Below the pieces are notes generated by a model. That model saw nothing but the letters and a program-made list of their open reading frames with translations, was not told where the DNA came from and searched no databases. Of a DNA stretch of 49,834 nucleotides, positions 9,082 through 48,216 are shown in pieces. Every line of letters begins with the position of its first letter. The stretch's first letter is position 1. Position numbers and translations under genes: made by a program. Source of the stretch: Escherichia phage UP30; the sequence record OX638287. One strand, written 5' to 3'.

Positions 9082-9107
9082 TGGTAAAATAGCACTAAAT
9101 GTTAAAC
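9082..9107 (+). promoter_or_regulatory. terS promoter: extended -10 TGgTAAAAT directly followed by dyad box
   Basis: TGGTAAAAT 9082-9090; tagcactaaatgttaaac 9090-9107; ATG 9123. Confidence 0.45.
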
Positions 9108-15784: not shown

Positions 15785-15812
15785 TTGACGCTTTAACAAA
15801 AAGTGCTATTAT
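15785..15812 (+). promoter_or_regulatory. strong sigma70-type promoter of capsid gene (TTGACG-16-TGcTATTAT) with inverted box in spacer
   Basis: -35 15785-15790, -10 15807-15812; box ttaacaaaaagtgctatta 15793-15811. Confidence 0.55.
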
Positions 15813-15816
15813 TGAA

Positions 15817-15845
15817 GCCGTGAACATAATCACGGCTTTTTTATT
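15817..15845 (+). terminator. hairpin + U-run in capsid gene 5' leader
   Basis: gccgtga-acataa-tcacggc then T6. Confidence 0.45.
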
Positions 15846-15863
15846 AACTAAGGAGAAATAATT

Positions 15864-16823
15864 ATGGCTACTAAAAAATTTGATGAAGCAGACAAAAGCA
15901 ATGTCGAAATGTATCTGATCCAGGCTGGCGTAAAGCAGGATGCAGCAGCAACTATGGGTATCTGGACCGCTCAGGAACTACACCGCATCAAAAACCAGTC
16001 TTACGAAGAAGATTACCCTGTCGGCTCCGCGCTGCGAGTATTCCCGGTTACTACCGATCTTTCTCCGACTGACAAGACTTTCGAATACATGACCTTTGAT
16101 AAGGTTGGCACGGCTCAGATTATCGCGGACTACACCGACGACCTGCCGCTTGTTGATGCCCTGGGCACTTCTGAGTTCGGTAAAGTGTTCCGTTTGGGTA
16201 ACGCGTATCTGATCTCAATCGACGAAATCAAAGCGGGTCAGGCAACTGGTCGCCCACTGTCAACTCGTAAGGCAAGTGCATGTCAGTTAGCGCATGACCA
16301 ACTGGTTAACCGTCTGGTGTTCAAAGGTTCCGTGCCGCACAAGATCGTGTCCGTGTTCAATCATCCGAACATCACCAAAATTACCTCCGGTAAGTGGATG
16401 GATGGCGCAACTCAGAAACCGGAAACAGCAGAAGCTGAATTGACTCAGGCAATCGAAACCATCGAGACGATTACTCGCGGTCAGCATCGTGCAACCAACA
16501 TTCTGATCCCGCCGTCCATGCGTAAGGTATTGGCTATTCGTATGCCTGAGACTACCATGTCTTATCTGGACTACTTCAAGTCTCAGAATGCTGGTATCGA
16601 GATCGACTCTATCGCAGAGCTTGAAGATATCGACGGCGCGGGTACTAAAGGTGTGCTGGTTTACGAAAAGAATCCGATGAACATGTCCATCGAGATCCCG
16701 GAAGCATTCAACATGCTGCCAGCACAGCCGAAAGACTTGCACTTTAAAGTGCCTTGCACCTCTAAGTGTACTGGTCTTACAATTTATCGCCCGATGACTA
16801 TTGTCTTAATCACTGGCGTGTAA
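15864..16823 (+). CDS. major capsid protein (putative)
   Basis: 319 aa, strong promoter upstream and strong terminator downstream, position in head module. Confidence 0.65.
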   Translation: MATKKFDEADKSNVEMYLIQAGVKQDAAATMGIWTAQELHRIKNQSYEEDYPVGSALRVFPVTTDLSPTDKTFEYMTFDKVGTAQIIADYTDDLPLVDALGTSEFGKVFRLGNAYLISIDEIKAGQATGRPLSTRKASACQLAHDQLVNRLVFKGSVPHKIVSVFNHPNITKITSGKWMDGATQKPETAEAELTQAIETIETITRGQHRATNILIPPSMRKVLAIRMPETTMSYLDYFKSQNAGIEIDSIAELEDIDGAGTKGVLVYEKNPMNMSIEIPEAFNMLPAQPKDLHFKVPCTSKCTGLTIYRPMTIVLITGV

Positions 16824-19525: not shown

Positions 19526-19560
19526 TAAAATCATCGTATCAACTTTATTCACTTCGTTTT

Positions 19561-19578
19561 TAACAAAAAGTGCTATTA
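19561..19578 (-). promoter_or_regulatory. dyad box, inverted relative to downstream tail chaperone gene
   Basis: taacaaaaagtgctatta; followed by CCAATCAGGAG leader. Confidence 0.45.
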
Positions 19579-19597
19579 ACCAATCAGGAGAAATATC

Positions 19598-19915
19598 ATG
19601 GCTAAATTCAATTTTGTGCTGGGCCAACTTCCAGACTTCAAACTTCCGGTAACTTTCACCATGCCAAACGGTGAAGATGCGACGATTATTTTTACCGTTC
19701 GCCACCTTTCCAGCAAAGAAGTACAGGATATGTACGCAAAACAGGGTGAAATGAATGATAGCGATTTCATCACTAAGATCGCGTCAGGCTGGAACGTTGA
19801 AGAAGAATTTAACGAAGATAACGCACGCAAACTGGTACAGTATTACCCATCCGCAGCGTACAATCTTACAGCCACTTACATTAAGGCTCTTGCCGGACAC
19901 CGCGCAAAAAACTAA
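19598..19915 (+). CDS. tail assembly chaperone (lambda gpG-like)
   Basis: Small acidic protein before tape measure; ends at slippery A_AAA_AAC. Confidence 0.65.
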   Translation: MAKFNFVLGQLPDFKLPVTFTMPNGEDATIIFTVRHLSSKEVQDMYAKQGEMNDSDFITKIASGWNVEEEFNEDNARKLVQYYPSAAYNLTATYIKALAGHRAKN

Positions 19916-29246: not shown

Positions 29247-30200
29247 ATACATGTTTGGAGTGAAAGGAATTGGCATTGAAATGTTTATGTTGAATGGGAA
29301 TTGAGCGCCGCTCTGAGTAGAATAGTTACCTACCCTCGTTCCTGGTGCGCTTCTAACGTTACCTCCGCTCATGCACACGCCCTTGTATCGGATGTTATTA
29401 TATCCACCTGTAACCCTGCATATTGTGCCAGTTCTCAGTATTGGGAAAAATCCACCGCACCACTGCCAGCCGTCATTTATCGCCATAGTCCCGCCGAGAA
29501 CGAAGGGGCGTCTAACGCTTGAGAAAACGATCTGACCAGCGGGATTGCTCATAGTAATTCCCGGTCCTGGAGGTGGTGGAGTGTTATTAAATATTACGAG
29601 TTGCACGTATACGCTCGCGCCAACGTCATCAATCCCGTTATAGTTTGCATCCCTACACCATATAGTATTTCCGTCAGATTCAAGTGTTACGTTTGGGTTA
29701 TCCCACATACCGAAAGGAACGCCCTGGACTGGCAATTGAGCCTGACCGTTAACCTGGATGCCTCCAACAAATGCGGCACTCATCAACCTTGCGTTATTCG
29801 GTATCGCTGCGAAGTTGGTTGAATCGTTGACAAGTATCCCCTGATTTCCTGCCTGAGCGGGGAGAATTTCGTAACAGTTGCCATAAAATCTCATCCTTCT
29901 TCCACCGTGACCGTTAAAATTCCCTACCGTTATTCGCCCGGTTGAATCATTAACCTTCTGAAAGCTGGTTAAATAATACACCTCAGGAATATAATCCATG
30001 TCGTCTATGTAGATGGACTGAGATGGAAGGCAAAAAGCAGTAGATCCAGGACTCATTTGCAGACCAAAATCAAAAACCGATCCCGATGAGTCAACGCCGT
30101 CCGCTTGTATTGGTCCGCACCATGACGGTGCGCGAAGCCCCGAGGTTATCTCCATTGCCGGACGACCGTCATTTAAGTTTATGTATATTCCTTGTCCCAT
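29244..30200 (-). CDS. hypothetical Gly/Asn-rich protein (about 318 aa), co-operonic with Cor-like lipoprotein
   Basis: ATG 30200 lies 2 nt after upstream stop (coupling); ends at bidirectional terminator. Confidence 0.55.
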   Translation of the reverse strand: MGQGIYINLNDGRPAMEITSGLRAPSWCGPIQADGVDSSGSVFDFGLQMSPGSTAFCLPSQSIYIDDMDYIPEVYYLTSFQKVNDSTGRITVGNFNGHGGRRMRFYGNCYEILPAQAGNQGILVNDSTNFAAIPNNARLMSAAFVGGIQVNGQAQLPVQGVPFGMWDNPNVTLESDGNTIWCRDANYNGIDDVGASVYVQLVIFNNTPPPPGPGITMSNPAGQIVFSSVRRPFVLGGTMAINDGWQWCGGFFPILRTGTICRVTGGYNNIRYKGVCMSGGNVRSAPGTRVGNYSTQSGAQFPFNINISMPIPFTPNMY

Positions 30201-30202
30201 AA

Positions 30203-30433
30203 TTACCACTCTTTAGTTTTGATTGACACCTTGCCGCTAAAGTTTCCCTGGTCGTCGTCTGATGACAGACCTTTGAATCGCATGTCGATTTCTCCAGCGG
30301 GAACATTCTGCCCGTCAACGAATCGCATCATGCAAGAACCGTACGCGTAAGTAACACAGTCGCCATTTTTAAGATTCTGAGCGCAACCAGTCAGGATGAA
30401 TGCAGAAGCGATAATGGTGATTAATTTTTTCAT
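30203..30433 (-). CDS. Cor-like lipoprotein (putative superinfection exclusion)
   Basis: 76 aa, signal peptide with lipobox LTGC, GAGGAC RBS, own sigma70-like promoter; name is from T1/phi80 context, not verified. Confidence 0.5.
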   Translation of the reverse strand: MKKLITIIASAFILTGCAQNLKNGDCVTYAYGSCMMRFVDGQNVPAGEIDMRFKGLSSDDDQGNFSGKVSIKTKEW

Positions 30434-30462
30434 TTGTATGTCCTCGTCGTTAGTGTGATTGC

Positions 30463-30491
30463 ATTGTATGTCGCATTTACTTTTATTGCAA
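30463..30491 (-). promoter_or_regulatory. sigma70-type promoter of cor operon (TTGCAA-17-TACAAT)
   Basis: -35 30486-30491, -10 30463-30468 on minus strand. Confidence 0.5.
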
Positions 30492-30511
30492 TAGCTCGAT
30501 TACAATTTTTT

Positions 30512-30695
30512 CGTGTAACAGGTGTCTATTTTTGTAACCGGAATAGGTGTTACAAAATCGACCCCATCCGACCGCAGGGAGATATGATAAAAACTCTATA
30601 TAATATATATAGATAGATAATATTTAATTTTAGCTTTATATATATAATTATTGTTGTGTAACAGTTGTCTATCGTGTAACAGGTGATTTGATTGA
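30512..30695. repeat. direct repeats cgtgtaacaggtg (x2) and gtgtaacagNtgtctat (x2) flanking an AT-rich block
   Basis: 13-mer at 30512-30524 and 30673-30685; TGTAAC/GTTACA 7 times in 30514-30854. Confidence 0.6.
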
Positions 30696-30900
30696 TTCGT
30701 CAAATTTCTATCATATATGTTCAAAATTTAATCAATAGGGATTCCATTTATGGATATCTATGTATTTCTAAGAAAAAGCGGTTACAAGTGTTACGCAATA
30801 GACAGCACACAAAAACTGACTCAAGTTATTGATTCAGTTGATGCTGGTTGTAACTTGAGCAATATAGACACGCAATTACACACCAATTACATGTATTCGA

Positions 30901-30928
30901 TTGACTAAATGCTGTTAATGGCTATAAT
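30901..30928 (+). promoter_or_regulatory. canonical sigma70 promoter of recombination module (TTGACT-16-TATAAT)
   Basis: -35 30901-30906, -10 30923-30928, AAGGAG 30945-30950. Confidence 0.6.
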
Positions 30929-30959
30929 GGATTCATCGTAAACGAAGGAGATAAACGCA

Positions 30960-32024
30960 ATGTTTAAAGTATTCACATCAAGCCAGCTTTCTAATGACGA
31001 GTATCATAGCAATGAAGGTTGGGCGGCAGAGTATGTAAGCGGATCTAGCCTTGCTGAAATCTATCAGACTTGTCCGGCTAACTGGAGATTCAAGAAGAAC
31101 GAAACGACTAAAGCGCTGGAGTTCGGTACTCAGTCGCATACAAACTTTGAGAGTAGCGATCTGTTTACTGCAACGTATGCGCGTTGTCCGTCTCCGGCAG
31201 AGTTCAAAGATCTGATTACGTCACAAGCCGCGCTGGCTGCAAAATTAAAATCTTTCGGCCTGAAAGGTACATCCGGTAAGCAGTACCCGGACCTCATCAA
31301 AATGATGGTTGATTGCGGTGAAGATCTCAATGTTCAATATCTGATTGAACTGATTGCTGAAGCTGAGGCGCGTGCTGAAGGAAAGCAACTGGTTGACGCT
31401 GATAAATATGATGCCTGTATGAAGATGAGAGCCATCCTTGAGCAAAATCCCGATCATGAAGCGTGCATCAATAGCGAGACGGCCCAGCGTGAGATCTCAA
31501 TCTTCGGTGAGATATCCGGCGTAAAGGTTAAAGTTCGACTTGACCATTTGGACTATAAAGAGAATGTTCCAGGTCGTGTGCTGACTGGTTACGATGAGAA
31601 TGGCGATCCGGTATTCGAAGACGTGATTTTTCCTGAAGCACTGATTATCACCGACTTCAAAACAACTATGAGCGCTAACCCGTTAGAGTTCCCGAGACTG
31701 GCATACAATCACGGCTATTACCTGAAAATGGCATTGCAGCACGACCTGCTGCGACGTGCAATCCAGGCTGGCGCTTTTGAGGGTAACTTCCCGGAAGATA
31801 TCCCGATCGTAGTTCGATTACTGGCGCAGGAGAAAAAAGAGCCTTACATCGCCCTTGCTTACCGCATGACTATGGAGCAAATCAGGATCGGGCGTAGTCA
31901 GTATGTTAGCGTTGTCCACACCTACAAGGCTTGTTCTGAGATGGACGTTTGGCCCGGATACGCTGGCGACGCAAGCGAGATCGAACTTGAAACGCCGTCA
32001 TGGGTACGCTATCAAAACAAGTAA
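30960..32024 (+). CDS. recombination exonuclease (PD-(D/E)xK, YqaJ/RecE-like)
   Basis: ITDFKT motif; first gene of exo-Erf-SSB module; canonical promoter upstream. Confidence 0.55.
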   Translation: MFKVFTSSQLSNDEYHSNEGWAAEYVSGSSLAEIYQTCPANWRFKKNETTKALEFGTQSHTNFESSDLFTATYARCPSPAEFKDLITSQAALAAKLKSFGLKGTSGKQYPDLIKMMVDCGEDLNVQYLIELIAEAEARAEGKQLVDADKYDACMKMRAILEQNPDHEACINSETAQREISIFGEISGVKVKVRLDHLDYKENVPGRVLTGYDENGDPVFEDVIFPEALIITDFKTTMSANPLEFPRLAYNHGYYLKMALQHDLLRRAIQAGAFEGNFPEDIPIVVRLLAQEKKEPYIALAYRMTMEQIRIGRSQYVSVVHTYKACSEMDVWPGYAGDASEIELETPSWVRYQNK

Positions 32025-35020: not shown

Positions 35021-35042
35021 AGTATAAACTCCTTAAGTAAAT

Positions 35043-35122: not shown

Positions 35123-36056
35123 AGAGTAGGTCACTTGCTGAGAATAATTTGGCTTGCATTCCTGAACGGTATCCTCCAGGGTTAGGGATGATTATTTTTA
35201 ACTGCCTGTCGTCTGCCATATACAAAGTTTCTTTGTCAGATGGTTCGCACGCCACCCTTACCTCCCGATCCCCTTTGTATCTGTACGCAACCATTTCTAG
35301 GTTTTCAGGAGTAAAGCAGGCCCATACCTCTTGCTTTGTATGAAATGCAATATGTTGAGCATCAATCCAGTTTAGACACAAGTAGATCGCCTTCTCAGTT
35401 TTACCAGTCACGGCAACCGAGCAACTTGTGTATTTCTTCGCGTAAAATGATTCCCTTCCCTCTTCATCAATAATCAAAATATTGCAAAACTCGTCATCAA
35501 GCCCATCGTCATGCACAAGTTGACACGGGATAGTGTGAAATACTGACTCACCGCCATCCTCGCGACGTTTTACGCCTACGTCGAATGATTCAGTGGGTAG
35601 TGACTCAAACATACTTAGAGGCGTGTTTACGCGCTTCTCTGTGCGCTCCATAACTTTCATCACTGCATCATGGTCTGCCATCATAACATTTACGCCAGCT
35701 ACCGGAGTGCGGCGTGCTTTTTTGTTTGCCTTGACAATGTACTCCTGCGGAACCTTACCGAGAAATCTCCCCAGGATGTTTATGCATTCACTGTACGGCA
35801 TACCAGTTAATTTCATCAACCAGCCGATCCCGGAGTCGTTGCCGCATGAGTTGCAGATCGCGCCGCCGTCGCCCGGAGTATTCAAGTTATCAGTCCAACG
35901 AAAACGGTCCTTGCCGCCGCAGTTAGGGCAAGGTTGGTGCTTCTTGTTGAAAACCTCGTTAGGCAATCCGCAAACAGACTGGAATGCATCACGCCATAAC
36001 CCCTTCATATACGGCAATACGTCCTCTTTCTGAAACATCATAAATTCTTCGTTCAC
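35121..36056 (-). CDS. DNA primase (zinc-binding, putative)
   Basis: CPNCGGKDRFRW...CNSC zinc-finger motif; GTG 36056 or ATG 36041, start uncertain. Confidence 0.55.
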   Translation of the reverse strand: MNEEFMMFQKEDVLPYMKGLWRDAFQSVCGLPNEVFNKKHQPCPNCGGKDRFRWTDNLNTPGDGGAICNSCGNDSGIGWLMKLTGMPYSECINILGRFLGKVPQEYIVKANKKARRTPVAGVNVMMADHDAVMKVMERTEKRVNTPLSMFESLPTESFDVGVKRREDGGESVFHTIPCQLVHDDGLDDEFCNILIIDEEGRESFYAKKYTSCSVAVTGKTEKAIYLCLNWIDAQHIAFHTKQEVWACFTPENLEMVAYRYKGDREVRVACEPSDKETLYMADDRQLKIIIPNPGGYRSGMQAKLFSASDLL

Positions 36057-36077
36057 TTCCAGATCTCCAAATAAAAA

Positions 36078-36132
36078 CGCGTAGAAGGATGTTACCCCGC
36101 TACGCGTCGTTTGTTTTAACTAAAAATGCTAT
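36078..36132 (-). promoter_or_regulatory. dyad box plus downstream hairpin/U-run upstream of primase
   Basis: Box 36114-36132 (minus sense tagcatttttagttaaaac); stem acgcgtag/ctacgcgt 36078-36110. Confidence 0.45.
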
Positions 36133-36568
36133 TGGTCGTTCCGATATCTTCCTTCTTCACCACTCGCATAAACTTCTTGTTCTTGCATCGCTTCTCAAGG
36201 CACTTGCCGTTACCGTCAAACTTGAGGTCGAATCGCAACCATGCCGCGCGGTATCCTTTACACCCCTGGCGACGGTAAGCGCGATGTGCAGCTTCAGCAC
36301 CTTGCCACGAAATCATATTGCGCTCTTTCCAGCCTTGCACGGTCTGATTACTAACTTTCAGAGCCTTTGCGCAGGCCGCCGGGCCACCATAATATTCGAT
36401 AAGAGCATCAAGTCGCGCTCGCAGTCCGGCGCGTGTTTCTTCTTTATGGATATAGAATCCGCAGCGTTGGCGAGGCTTTTTATCTTTACCGCGTCGGGTT
36501 CCATTGTTACCATTGATGTGACGTTTATCGATTTCACCAGTTGACTCGGCAATTCGTTGCATATTCAT
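36116..36568 (-). CDS. DNA-binding protein with Cro-like HTH and possible N-terminal HNH-like motif
   Basis: ACAKALKVSNQTVQGW helix-turn-helix; RHINGNNG resembles an HNH core; AGGAG RBS. Confidence 0.45.
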   Translation of the reverse strand: MNMQRIAESTGEIDKRHINGNNGTRRGKDKKPRQRCGFYIHKEETRAGLRARLDALIEYYGGPAACAKALKVSNQTVQGWKERNMISWQGAEAAHRAYRRQGCKGYRAAWLRFDLKFDGNGKCLEKRCKNKKFMRVVKKEDIGTTNSIFS

Positions 36569-36581
36569 CTTGATTCTCCTG

Positions 36582-36648
36582 TAGCACTTTTTGCTAAAAA
36601 CGTTTACTGTATGCCGTGTATTATAGCGTAAACGTTACAACGATTCAA
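36582..36648. promoter_or_regulatory. bidirectional promoter region sharing one palindromic -10 (TATTATAG)
   Basis: Box 36582-36601; plus -10 tattat 36619-36624; minus TATAAT 36620-36625 with -35 TTGAAT 36643-36648. Confidence 0.5.
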
Positions 36649-36661
36649 AGGATTAATAGCC

Positions 36662-38680
36662 GTGACAATGAACATCAAAAAGCAGATTGCATTACTTGGC
36701 GAGGACTACATAAAACGCACTCAGGAGCGATTCACTGTTGGTGAGGTCGTTCCGTATCCGTATCAGGTTGTTGCTTATGCTGAGATAGCGAAGCGCCTGT
36801 CAAATTATGATCATCCATTCTTCGTTAAAGCGTCAGTATCTGCGGGTAAGACAATCATTTTTGCTATGGTTGCAAAACAGTGTCAGAAAATGGGGTTAAA
36901 AATGCTTGTGCTGGCACGCCAGGGTGAGATTGTCGATCAGGATAGCGAAGAGATCGACAACTTCGGTGTGACTAACTCTATCTTCTCAGCGTCACTTGGA
37001 ATAAAATCTTGCTACTTCCCGATCGTGGTTGGCTCTGAGGGTACTGTTGCAAACGGCCTCAATAATGAGTTGGCTGATTTTGTCCCGCATGTAATAGGGA
37101 TCGACGAATGTCACCAGGTGGATTGGGAAGACCTCGCGCAAGCAATCGAAGGAAAGGAAACGATTGAGCAGATGAGGGGGGAGAAAGGGAAAGTTATCAT
37201 GGAAGGGGAGATTCCTCTGATTGGTAATGATGGTAAGCCTCTTCTCGGAACTAAGCGAAGCCAGTACACGATCGTTATCATGGAGATGATGCGTCGCTGT
37301 AAAGAGGTTCACGGGCATGACCTAAGAATATTTGGTATGACGGGATCTGAATTTCGCGGCGTTGTTCCTATTCTTGTTGAGAACCCAAAGGCGTTAGGAT
37401 TCTGGCGTGAGCGCGTTACTGATATTGACACAAACTACCTCATTGAGTTTGGTTCTGTCGTTCCGACGATATTCGGTTCAACTGACGGGGTTCATTACGA
37501 TCTGGATAAGTTCAAGGCGTCGAGCGAGGACGGCGTGCAGGACTTTACAGAGAAAGATATGAAGGCGATGGAAGATGAAATCCTTCATGACAAATCTCTG
37601 ACTCAGCGAATCATGCAAATGGTCGCCAAAAAGGCTGAAGAACGCAACGCTGTTTTGATTACATGTGCCGGGGTTCGTCACTGTAAAGAGGCGGCGGCGG
37701 CACTTCCTCCGGGAAGCACCTATGCAATCATCACTGGAGATACAGACACCAAAACTCGCAAGAAGATTCTGGACGATGTGAGGGCCGGGAAGATTAAATA
37801 CACCTTTCAGGTAATGGCTCTCACGACTGGCGTTAACGTTCCAAATTGGGATTTCAGCGTCATACTTCGTAAGATAGGATCACTCACGCTGTTGATTCAA
37901 CTTTTGGGTAGGGGTATGCGACTGCTTAAATCATGGCAGGTAGCTGAAGGAATGGTCAAGCAAGATCATCTTGTATGGGATTTCGCTGGCACCATGGATG
38001 AGTTAGGCCAACTTTATTTCGATCCGATACTTGAGCAGGCTCAATTCCAGAAGCGTTTTGAAAACGGCAAAGACCCGAAAACGTGTCCGAAGTGTGGTTG
38101 CGTAAATAGCTTCTACGCTCGCCGATGCGTTAACGTTATCGACGGTGAGCGTTGTGATCATTTCTGGACTTCTCAGATTTGCGAGGACCAGGTGGATGAG
38201 CGTACCGGGAAAATCATTGTTAAAGGATGTGGTGCAGAGAATGACGTTGTTGCTCGCGTCTGCCGTTGCTGCGATGTTTCGCTTGTCGATCCTAACCTGA
38301 AGTTGTCAGGTAAAGCGTACACCAAGAATGACTGGTACGAGGTCAAGAATTTTGAGGTAACTCTAACCAAAAACCAAAAGGGCGTTATATACAAATACAC
38401 ACTGATTAACGATGATGGCGATGAGTTCAAGGCGTATGAAAAATTCTTCCCTGAGTCCGACTCTAAGATTTGCGGTACGCTATGGAAAACGAAGGGTGTA
38501 TTGCCTCATGTGTCAGATCCTAAAATGCGTCGCTACTTTATCGGAATGAAGAACGCCATCAAGATCGTGCAGTACTCGCATCATATCGCTCATCCGGTAC
38601 GTGTCACACACCGACGCAACCAGAAGAAGGAAGATATTATTTCACGTAAAGATTTCGGTATGGAGGATATCCCACAATGA
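36662..38680 (+). CDS. SF2 helicase with C-terminal zinc ribbon
   Basis: Walker A SAGKT, DECH box, CPKCGC...C-rich C-terminus; start may be ATG 36668. Confidence 0.75.
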   Translation: MTMNIKKQIALLGEDYIKRTQERFTVGEVVPYPYQVVAYAEIAKRLSNYDHPFFVKASVSAGKTIIFAMVAKQCQKMGLKMLVLARQGEIVDQDSEEIDNFGVTNSIFSASLGIKSCYFPIVVGSEGTVANGLNNELADFVPHVIGIDECHQVDWEDLAQAIEGKETIEQMRGEKGKVIMEGEIPLIGNDGKPLLGTKRSQYTIVIMEMMRRCKEVHGHDLRIFGMTGSEFRGVVPILVENPKALGFWRERVTDIDTNYLIEFGSVVPTIFGSTDGVHYDLDKFKASSEDGVQDFTEKDMKAMEDEILHDKSLTQRIMQMVAKKAEERNAVLITCAGVRHCKEAAAALPPGSTYAIITGDTDTKTRKKILDDVRAGKIKYTFQVMALTTGVNVPNWDFSVILRKIGSLTLLIQLLGRGMRLLKSWQVAEGMVKQDHLVWDFAGTMDELGQLYFDPILEQAQFQKRFENGKDPKTCPKCGCVNSFYARRCVNVIDGERCDHFWTSQICEDQVDERTGKIIVKGCGAENDVVARVCRCCDVSLVDPNLKLSGKAYTKNDWYEVKNFEVTLTKNQKGVIYKYTLINDDGDEFKAYEKFFPESDSKICGTLWKTKGVLPHVSDPKMRRYFIGMKNAIKIVQYSHHIAHPVRVTHRRNQKKEDIISRKDFGMEDIPQ

Positions 38681-39093
38681 TTACAGACAAAGGTGATTAT
38701 TTAGAGTTTTACGAACGAGATCCCAGCGACACACGAAAGGAGGACGCGCACCAGGTAGATTGCGTGTCCTGGCTGAAATACAATTTCCCACATCTTCTAT
38801 TTTGGCACACTGTAAATGAAGGTGAAAAAACAATCACCTCGGCGCTCAGGGATGAGCAGGCTGGGTTACTTAAAGGAGTGTCAGACTTCGTTATCCTGAT
38901 TGGTGTAAACTCACGCTACCCGTTCGCAGCTATCGAACTCAAGCGGGTTAATAAGTCCGGCAAGGGAAAGGCGTCACCAGTCAGCGATAAGCAAAAGGAA
39001 TTTCTCCGCAATGTTCGTCAACGAGGTGGATTTGCTGCGGTTGCATATGGATTGGAGCAATTCAAGATCGCAATTTACGAAATGATGAAATAG
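38677..39093 (+). CDS. VRR-NUC-type nuclease
   Basis: PD-(D/E)xK-like core (VSDFVIL...AAIELK); ATGA overlap with helicase. Confidence 0.6.
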   Translation: MITDKGDYLEFYERDPSDTRKEDAHQVDCVSWLKYNFPHLLFWHTVNEGEKTITSALRDEQAGLLKGVSDFVILIGVNSRYPFAAIELKRVNKSGKGKASPVSDKQKEFLRNVRQRGGFAAVAYGLEQFKIAIYEMMK

Positions 39094-39135
39094 CACTTTT
39101 TGTTAAAACTGCCGGAATGGAATCTGGCATTATTA
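39091..39135 (+). promoter_or_regulatory. promoter module upstream of dam
   Basis: tagcactttttgttaaaac; TGgCATTAT. Confidence 0.5.
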
Positions 39136-47831: not shown

Positions 47832-47880
47832 GGGATGACTATACCAGCCATCCCGGATGCGCGTTTAGCAATTCGTGCTA
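47832..47880 (-). promoter_or_regulatory. promoter module (minus strand)
   Basis: Minus-sense tagcacgaattgctaaac; gggatggcTGGTATAGTcatccc. Confidence 0.55.
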
Positions 47881-48216
47881 TTAAGCAATATCGAACTCAG
47901 CGGCATATGCTTCCTTGAAGCCAGCTTCACGCATGGTGCGCTTGCTGATTTTGCGCTGGAATTTGTACTGGCTGTTAGGCATAACCCACCAGAAGCAGGC
48001 AGTTTCACGAACGATTTCATATTTACCGTAACGGGTGAAGGTGTCGCGTTCCATATCCGGCTGATTTACACAGGTCAGGAATTTAGCTGCCTTGTCTTCA
48101 GTTTTGATTTCTTCCCACACGAAGGAATCCATACCGTTAACCTTGCAAGCTACCATGATGTACTCAACGCCGTTTTCGATTTTGATGATTTCGTTACCGC
48201 GATTTTCGTATTTCAT
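47881..48216 (-). CDS. hypothetical protein (111 aa)
   Basis: ORF after promoter module; stop overlaps next box. Confidence 0.55.
   Translation of the reverse strand: MKYENRGNEIIKIENGVEYIMVACKVNGMDSFVWEEIKTEDKAAKFLTCVNQPDMERDTFTRYGKYEIVRETACFWWVMPNSQYKFQRKISKRTMREAGFKEAYAAEFDIA

Follow-up and report, generated by a model that had tools for sequence, protein, structure and literature searches.

A Predicted Bidirectional Promoter between the pir and Helicase Genes Is Conserved among T1-like Phages

Results

Genes at the Locus

The DNA analysed here, referred to as the window, is the whole 49,834-nt stretch of Escherichia phage UP30 in record OX638287, a T1-like phage of the genus Tunavirus, family Drexlerviridae, showing ~92–94% identity to T1 and close relatives. 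At the locus under study, two genes diverge from a 93-bp intergenic gap. The leftward one (minus strand, nt 36116–36568), here called pir, codes for a 150-aa HTH regulator, the orthologue of T1 orf23/Pir; the rightward one (plus strand, nt 36662–38680), the first gene in its unit, has a GTG start and codes for an SF2 helicase with Helicase_C and ResIII matches, the orthologue of T1 gp22. This gene frame, including the start positions 36568 and 36662, had been proposed in an earlier note made from the sequence and agrees with the ORF list. The pir Shine-Dalgarno, AGGAGA (minus strand, nt 36575–36580), directly adjoins a repeated element, the box described below, as it does in relatives. Downstream of pir and on the same strand lies the primase gene, separated from pir by a terminator hairpin and by another copy of the box. 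Only 3 of the 99 aligned intergenic positions differ from T1 and, given this and the overall identity, experiments on T1 can be transferred to the window. A literature search on T1-like phages found no start-site or transcriptome study.

The pir product shares ~98% protein identity with the T1-group proteins and matches PHROG 2856 ("transcriptional regulator", E 2e-76); T1 ST23 is annotated as a transcriptional regulator. A weak P22_Cro match fell under the Pfam cut-off, and comparison with solved structures gave weak Cro-like matches only (1rzs, E 0.007); a single-sequence AlphaFold model of Pir was unusable (pLDDT 40.7). The Cro-like HTH, at about residues 55–85, is less conserved than the N-terminal basic stretch, and its predicted recognition helix varies among relatives, in which the box is invariant. 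The most conserved part of the protein, DKRxxNGNNGTxRGxDKKxRxR...GYYxLKDE, lies within residues 14–53 and has no family assignment; its basic segment DKRxxNGNNGTxRGxDKK is invariant among relatives.

The Leftward Promoter

A consensus scan for canonical sigma70 promoters (-35/-10 spacer of 16–18 bp, A at position 2 and T at position 6 of the -10) called a promoter directed towards pir, with the -10 TATAAT (ATTATA on the plus strand, nt 36620–36625) and the -35 TTGAAT (attcaa on the plus strand, nt 36643–36648) separated by a 17-bp spacer. Direct reading agrees with the scan and with the earlier description of this promoter. Its score of 10/12 is reached by few sites, since the scan returned only 10 at 10/12 or above in the whole window, both strands included. 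The same promoter is annotated in the records of phages SA32RD, AKS96 and TLS (as P57), and it is active with the E. coli machinery alone, both in vivo and in vitro (PMC6737242). From its geometry, transcription of pir is predicted to start at nt 36612–36614, 17–19 bp from the start predicted on the plus strand.

The Rightward Hexamer and the Shared -10 Region

Shifted by 1 bp with respect to the pir -10, the plus strand reads TATTAT (nt 36619–36624), exactly 20 nt past the box. Direct reading thus bears out the overlap of the two hexamers on opposite strands. The consensus scan called no plus-strand promoter at the helicase, because no -35 is found at 16–18 bp, the best candidate at this spacing matching 3/6. 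The additional claim that the sequence is an extended -10 on both strands turned out to be wrong. In an extended -10, TG occupies -15/-14, with a single base between it and the hexamer; the minus hexamer, preceded by CGC, is without TG, and the plus hexamer is preceded by GTG, in which the TG is out of register, one base too close. From the geometry, helicase transcription is predicted to start at A36631, the 7th base past the hexamer; other members of the box family also have an A at this distance.

Heptamers that read as a -10 on both strands (at least 5/6 matches each) are no rarer than expected by chance, with 34 in the window versus 48 ± 7 in shuffled sequences; the coincidence of the two hexamers is therefore no proof by itself.

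The -10 region is flanked by a perfect inverted repeat with 9-bp arms, AACGTTTAC (nt 36599–36607) and GTAAACGTT (nt 36628–36636), the latter falling within the pir promoter spacer and spanning the start predicted for the helicase. Of the 27 box regions of the window, no other contains a perfect inverted repeat as long as this one, which is partly kept within Tunavirus and not beyond the genus, and shows no compensatory changes.

The Box Family

The box, GTAGCACTTTTTGCTAAA (plus strand, nt 36581–36598), is a T-class copy directed towards the helicase and matches ATAGCAYnnnTTGnTAAA with 1 mismatch; the pattern has 27 matches in the window, versus 0.87 expected. In 19 of the 27 copies, that of the helicase included, a [TC]AnnnT hexamer, mostly TATAGT, is found exactly 20 nt past the box (background 0.034, P ~2e-22), and no other offset is enriched. 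These box promoters have a common leader, consisting of cATCrAAACGA followed by GAGGAA and ATG, and their start codons lie 68–84 nt from the box start.

The helicase copy shares these features, being correctly oriented, with TATTAT at offset 20 (19–21 allowed), the family motif ACAACGA at nt 36637–36643, the Shine-Dalgarno AAAGGA at nt 36647–36652 and a distance of 81 nt to the GTG start codon. The only family feature missed is the TGn preceding the -10, which is present in 12 of the 19 box promoters and absent at the helicase (GTG). From the exact register, the leader and the distances, the plus hexamer is thus identified as the -10 of a box promoter of this phage, and the predicted rightward promoter is a member of a phage-wide family. 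The box at nt 36581–36598 belongs to the helicase unit and not to pir.

The earlier note had described the box as a dyad, and the dyad is indeed present inside it (TAGCA, nt 36582–36586, and TGCTA, nt 36592–36596, with a 5-bp gap and the centre at nt 36589). It is not, however, a private local operator, but one of 27 oriented copies spread over the genome, and the symmetry is lost in most relatives, which have TGTTA. The proposed placement of the box, upstream of the plus promoter and inside the leader of the minus transcript, stood up: with respect to the predicted starts, the dyad centre lies at -42 of the helicase and at about +25 of pir, the box lying antisense in the pir transcript, from about +16 to about +33.

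The central triplet of the boxes is TTT in 11 copies, GAA in 9 and TAA in 4, and the copies in leader, spacer or stop-codon positions are all of the TTT class. Published reporters fit this split, TTT being Pir-responsive (dam, pir) and GAA Orf65-responsive (orf65).

Some copies have particular layouts. The box of the primase gene (minus strand, nt 36115–36132) overlaps the pir stop codon; its offset-20 hexamer, TAACAT, falls in the loop of the hairpin that terminates pir, and 76 nt separate the start of this box from the primase GTG (window 36056–36132). An antisense box (minus strand, nt 15792–15809) coincides exactly with the 16-bp spacer in TTGACG-16-TATTAT, a sigma70-like promoter of the plus strand (window 15785–15865), and is followed by a terminator-like hairpin (nt 15814–15845) and by the ATG of the major capsid gene (nt 15865), possibly a repressed or attenuated late promoter. 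Another antisense box (nt 19559–19576) adjoins the Shine-Dalgarno of a plus-strand gene, the homologue of T1 ST40 (ATG at nt 19599; window 19559–19601), with the same layout as at pir. The box at nt 9089–9106 is only 16 nt upstream of the ATG of the terminase small subunit and has no -10 at offset 20.

Inverted repeats of non-conserved sequence bracket the -10 in many box promoters, as in GGGATAAC ctggtata GTTATCCC. Of the 27 box regions (those of the boxes 786–803, 39090–39107 and 47864–47881 among them), 8 contain a perfect stem of 7 bp or more, versus 2% of shuffled sequences. Since several of the hairpins bracketing the -10 are annotated as rho-independent terminators in the T1 record, a terminator and the next promoter seem to be fused at these sites, with the -10 in the loop or in the 3' arm.

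Conservation across Drexlerviridae

The locus was compared in 12 annotated phages of different Drexlerviridae genera, 80 IMG/VR contigs and the window, for a total of 93 loci, 66 of which are unique in sequence. A box in helicase orientation, adjoining the pir Shine-Dalgarno, was found in all 93 loci. The distance from box to hexamer is 19–20 nt in 60 of the 66 unique sequences. On the minus strand, the hexamer is TATAAT in 48 of the 66 and a -35-like hexamer is found 16–17 bp from it in 64, with a mean promoter score of 9.7/12; on the plus strand, the best -35 at normal spacing is typically 3/6 in the same set. A canonical TG precedes the hexamer in 9/66 (plus) and 2/66 (minus). In the Rtp-like group (6/66), the region reads TAGTATTGTA, and the two hexamers overlap with a different offset.

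Conservation of single positions was evaluated on a MAFFT alignment of 64 unique sequences. Apart from the box, the only intergenic positions conserved in at least 90% of the sequences are T36619, A36620, T36621, T36624, A36625 and A36647–A36648. The first five are the key -10 bases of the two strands: A36620 and T36624 are common to both hexamers, T36619 belongs to the plus hexamer only and A36625 to the minus hexamer only. At the position equivalent to A36625 (plus -6), an A is found in 2 of the 18 other box promoters (3/19 counting that of the helicase). Both -10 readings thus appear to be under selection, the conservation of T36619 and A36625 being the best evidence available. The earlier proposal of divergent promoters with one -10 region is borne out in this respect, and all the T1-like phages examined keep the predicted two-way layout. 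We consider the two-promoter architecture very likely, and the helicase promoter is probably active.

Comparison with Bidirectional Promoters of E. coli

Bidirectional sigma70 promoters with a common -10 have been described by Warman, Grainger et al. (bioRxiv 10.1101/2020.01.31.928960; NAR 2026, PMC12825309), with PacrA/acrR and PsoxS/soxR among the examples. They are defined by -10 elements on opposite strands having positions 2 and 6 paired, with divergent starts 7–25 bp apart; 18 bp is the commonest spacing, and 19% of E. coli start sites fall in bidirectional promoters by this count (PMC12825309). At the pir–helicase locus, A36620 pairs with the minus T-7 and T36624 with the minus A-11, in accordance with the hexamer geometry of this definition. 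As the hexamers are offset by 1 bp and each start is placed 7 nt downstream, the predicted starts (36631 and ~36613) are 18 bp apart. Both products are mRNAs. The predicted pir–helicase promoter is therefore, by its hexamer geometry, of a kind already described in E. coli.

Two differences are evident. Here, one promoter is near consensus, whereas the other is phage-specific, box-dependent and without a -35; furthermore, the arrangement is kept across a whole phage family, with starts predicted from sequence.

Two polymerases at such a promoter are mutually exclusive (PMC12825309), in agreement with the statement of the earlier note that the two directions cannot be occupied at once. An activator acting in one direction represses the divergent RNA, usually via competition alone (Warman et al.), so that the same exclusion, with activation one way depressing the other, is expected here. 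From these published effects, inverse coupling between pir and the replication genes, as suggested earlier, is an established kind of mechanism. It is nevertheless not automatic, because basal activity is usually too low for competition, which is seen only under strong one-way activation (Warman et al.).

T1 Reporter Data

In reporters assayed in phage-free E. coli, Pir, the product of T1 orf23, was found to activate hol and dam and to repress recE as well as its own promoter; Orf65 and cAMP-CRP also repress the pir promoter, and the orf65 promoter is activated by Orf65 independently of Pir (PMC6737242). Each reporter included at most 150 bp of the sequence preceding the start codon (PMC6737242), and we determined the box content of these fragments by mapping the boxes on the T1 sequence. 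The pir fragment, repressed by Pir, contains the T-class box together with both promoters. The dam fragment, activated by Pir, contains a T-class box promoter, and the Pir-independent orf65 fragment, activated by Orf65, a GAA-class one. Only half a box is present in the hol fragment (activated by Pir), and recE (repressed by Pir) has a plain sigma70 promoter with no box. These data fit, although incompletely, a Pir that recognises T-class boxes, with activation from a position near -42 and repression when the box lies inside a leader.

Rejected Readings of the Intergenic Region

Other readings of the intergenic sequence were discarded. An RNA hairpin formed by the dyad in the pir leader is not supported by its folding energy (z = +0.93 versus shuffled sequences), and TGTTA, found in most relatives, would give an A-C mismatch on the pir strand; an Rfam search returned no match at E <= 1. 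TTGCTA (nt 36591–36596) is too far from the hexamer for a canonical plus-strand -35, with a spacer of 22 bp in the window and of 21–22 bp in all relatives. A sigma54 reading of TAGCAC-N-TTGC was rejected because 2 bp are missing from the GG/GC spacing and the sequence is TTGT in most relatives. As to the published repression by cAMP-CRP, a consensus scan of the window gave 201 CRP matches versus 199 expected, with none in the intergenic region at up to 3 mismatches, and a CRP-like site in this region was thus discarded as its cause.

Discussion

The comparative data point to the pir–helicase gap as a real and conserved bidirectional promoter region of a known kind. Combining this with a control element, we lean, by a small degree, towards a promoter of the type described by Warman, Grainger et al., kept across the Drexlerviridae loci examined and provided with a switch operated by an activator bound to the box. 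In this model, the leftward near-consensus sigma70 promoter would be usable by the host RNA polymerase unaided and would drive pir and perhaps, by read-through across the terminator hairpin and the next box copy, the primase; the rightward box promoter, having no normally spaced -35, is presumably activator-dependent and would drive the helicase and the following gene. Early in infection the strong leftward promoter would win and Pir would accumulate. A phage regulator, most probably Pir itself, would then bind the T-class box, at about -42 of the helicase and about +25 of pir, and recruit the polymerase rightward, pir being shut off by polymerase competition, by a roadblock, or by both. This regulatory interpretation is plausible and partly backed by the T1 reporter data, which fit a Pir-driven flip from pir to helicase, short of proof; its helicase side is predicted.

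The part of this model that we hold most tentatively is the identity of the regulator, Pir being a possible reader of the box with somewhat less than an even chance in our judgement. Among the competing explanations, the one that survives best, still unlikely as a whole, has the box read by a factor other than Pir, either of the phage (Orf65 or another protein) or of the host (a conserved component, e.g., RNA polymerase itself), with Pir acting at other sites. Phages of Escherichia, Klebsiella, Yersinia and Enterobacter have an invariant box despite differences in the recognition helix predicted for Pir; the box-type promoter of orf65 is activated by Orf65, which also represses pir; and neither the hol nor the recE fragment needs a full box to respond to Pir. 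On the other hand, Pir on its own suffices to activate dam, a box-type promoter, in phage-free E. coli (PMC6737242), its invariant basic N-terminal region could supply the conserved contacts, and the Orf65 homologue has no recognisable DNA-binding domain.

That only the leftward sigma70 promoter is functional appears improbable. TATTAT would then be a by-product of the near-palindromic TATAAT, and the box would do no more than bind a repressor in the pir leader, as a roadblock or "stoperator". Such a picture accords with the scan, which finds the minus promoter alone, with a plus side having neither -35 nor TGn, and with double-reading heptamers being common by chance; antisense boxes also occur at another Shine-Dalgarno (nt 19559–19576) and in the spacer of the capsid-gene promoter (nt 15792–15809), and a stoperator role is among those proposed by the authors of the TLS study (PMC11447400). 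It leaves unaccounted for the orientation of the box towards the helicase in 93/93 loci, the hexamer lying in the exact register of the box family, the conservation, in at least 90% of the sequences, of T36619, which belongs to the plus hexamer only, and a leader motif and box-to-start distance matching those of the family. Moreover, no other plausible helicase promoter is available, the sole upstream plus-strand box (nt 35041) having a poor -10 and being followed by a terminator.

Similarly improbable is that both promoters are real and fire independently, with an occupancy too low for competition, so that autorepression of pir and activation of the helicase would be separate effects of regulator binding. 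Warman et al. can be cited in support of this reading, and also against it, as they show that the divergent RNA is repressed once one side is activated. In addition, the pir promoter is near consensus and, with 6/6 matches at the -10 and an optimal spacer, is not a weak basal promoter.

It is highly improbable that the region is chiefly a replication origin or a helicase/primase loading site, with AACGTTTAC/GTAAACGTT as a structural element and the hexamers incidental: its position between the primase and helicase genes and a perfect inverted repeat longer than those of all other box regions may suggest so, but the repeat is not kept outside Tunavirus and varies without compensation inside the genus, the GC skew merely tracks gene orientation, the conserved positions are those of the promoters and not of the repeat arms, and a better origin-like region lies upstream of recE.

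The gap between cor (leftward) and recE (rightward), 530 bp long and AT-rich (window 30430–30960; T1 29850–30378), is a candidate origin or operator cluster. It contains 8 GTAAC/GTTAC motifs in one 500-bp bin, versus a mean of 1.3, and the best sigma70 promoter of the genome, TTGACT-16-TATAAT (nt 30901–30928).

Returning to the bidirectional promoter with a box-bound activator, its parts resemble several well-known systems. Class II activator-dependent promoters include those bound by CRP/FNR at -41.5, lambda PRM with cI at OR2 (-42), and the Mu middle and late promoters activated by Mor and C. The helicase promoter resembles them in its good -10, its lack of a usable -35 and the quasi-dyad of the box, the centre of which is predicted to fall near -42; it differs in that the -35-like TTGyTA internal to the box is 21–22 bp from the -10 and in that the site lies inside the leader of the divergent gene. 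Lambda PR and PRM are arranged back to back, with separate -10 elements ~80 bp apart. There too, a phage HTH regulator is autoregulated and controls a divergent replication/lytic operon from one short region, whereas here the -10 is common and Pir is reported as a lytic activator, not an immunity repressor. A stoperator of the L5 type is a repressor site within a transcribed region, imposing an orientation-dependent block to elongation.

There is also a close relationship with phage TLS, in which a 21-nt direct repeat, aaATAGCACnnnTTGnTAAAA, occurs in 21 copies oriented along transcription, ~76 nt upstream of start codons; its function was left open between stoperator, enhancer and UP-like element (PMC11447400). 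These repeats, as well as the T1 "transcriptons", share the motif and the orientation rule of the box family, and DR11 and P57 of TLS are the orthologues of the helicase box and of the pir promoter. The main text and Supplementary Table S1 of that paper contain neither the 20-nt link to a -10 nor the overlap with P57. In the literature accessible, the box-promoter family appears only as an unexplained repeat.

A more far-reaching reading, which we offer as a speculation and regard as rather doubtful in its entirety, would make the T-class box the Pir operator, with Pir at -42 flipping the conserved bidirectional promoter from pir to helicase, and the 93-bp region an early-to-replication switch. 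The ~20 box promoters per genome would form a distinct activator-dependent class, with a -35-like TTGyTA displaced by ~5 bp from the usual place, and the sub-classes TTT, GAA and TAA would be read by different phage regulators (e.g., Pir and Orf65).

Much of the transcription programme of T1, a classic phage, is still to be mapped, and three strands of evidence, namely the annotated sigma70 promoter of pir, the repeated 21-nt element and the Pir reporter data, are unconnected in published work. Should the model be wrong, the gap would be divergent intergenic DNA of the ordinary sort, with a single annotated promoter. If it is true, a single -10 region, with the box on one side and the -35 on the other, would decide between synthesis of the regulator and expression of the replication genes, and the repeated 21-nt element would mark a promoter class of the phage's own. 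Regulation by polymerase competition at bidirectional promoters has been shown for few cases only (Warman, Grainger et al.), and the pir–helicase region would then be a naturally strong, conserved and regulator-controlled case of the E. coli-type bidirectional promoter.
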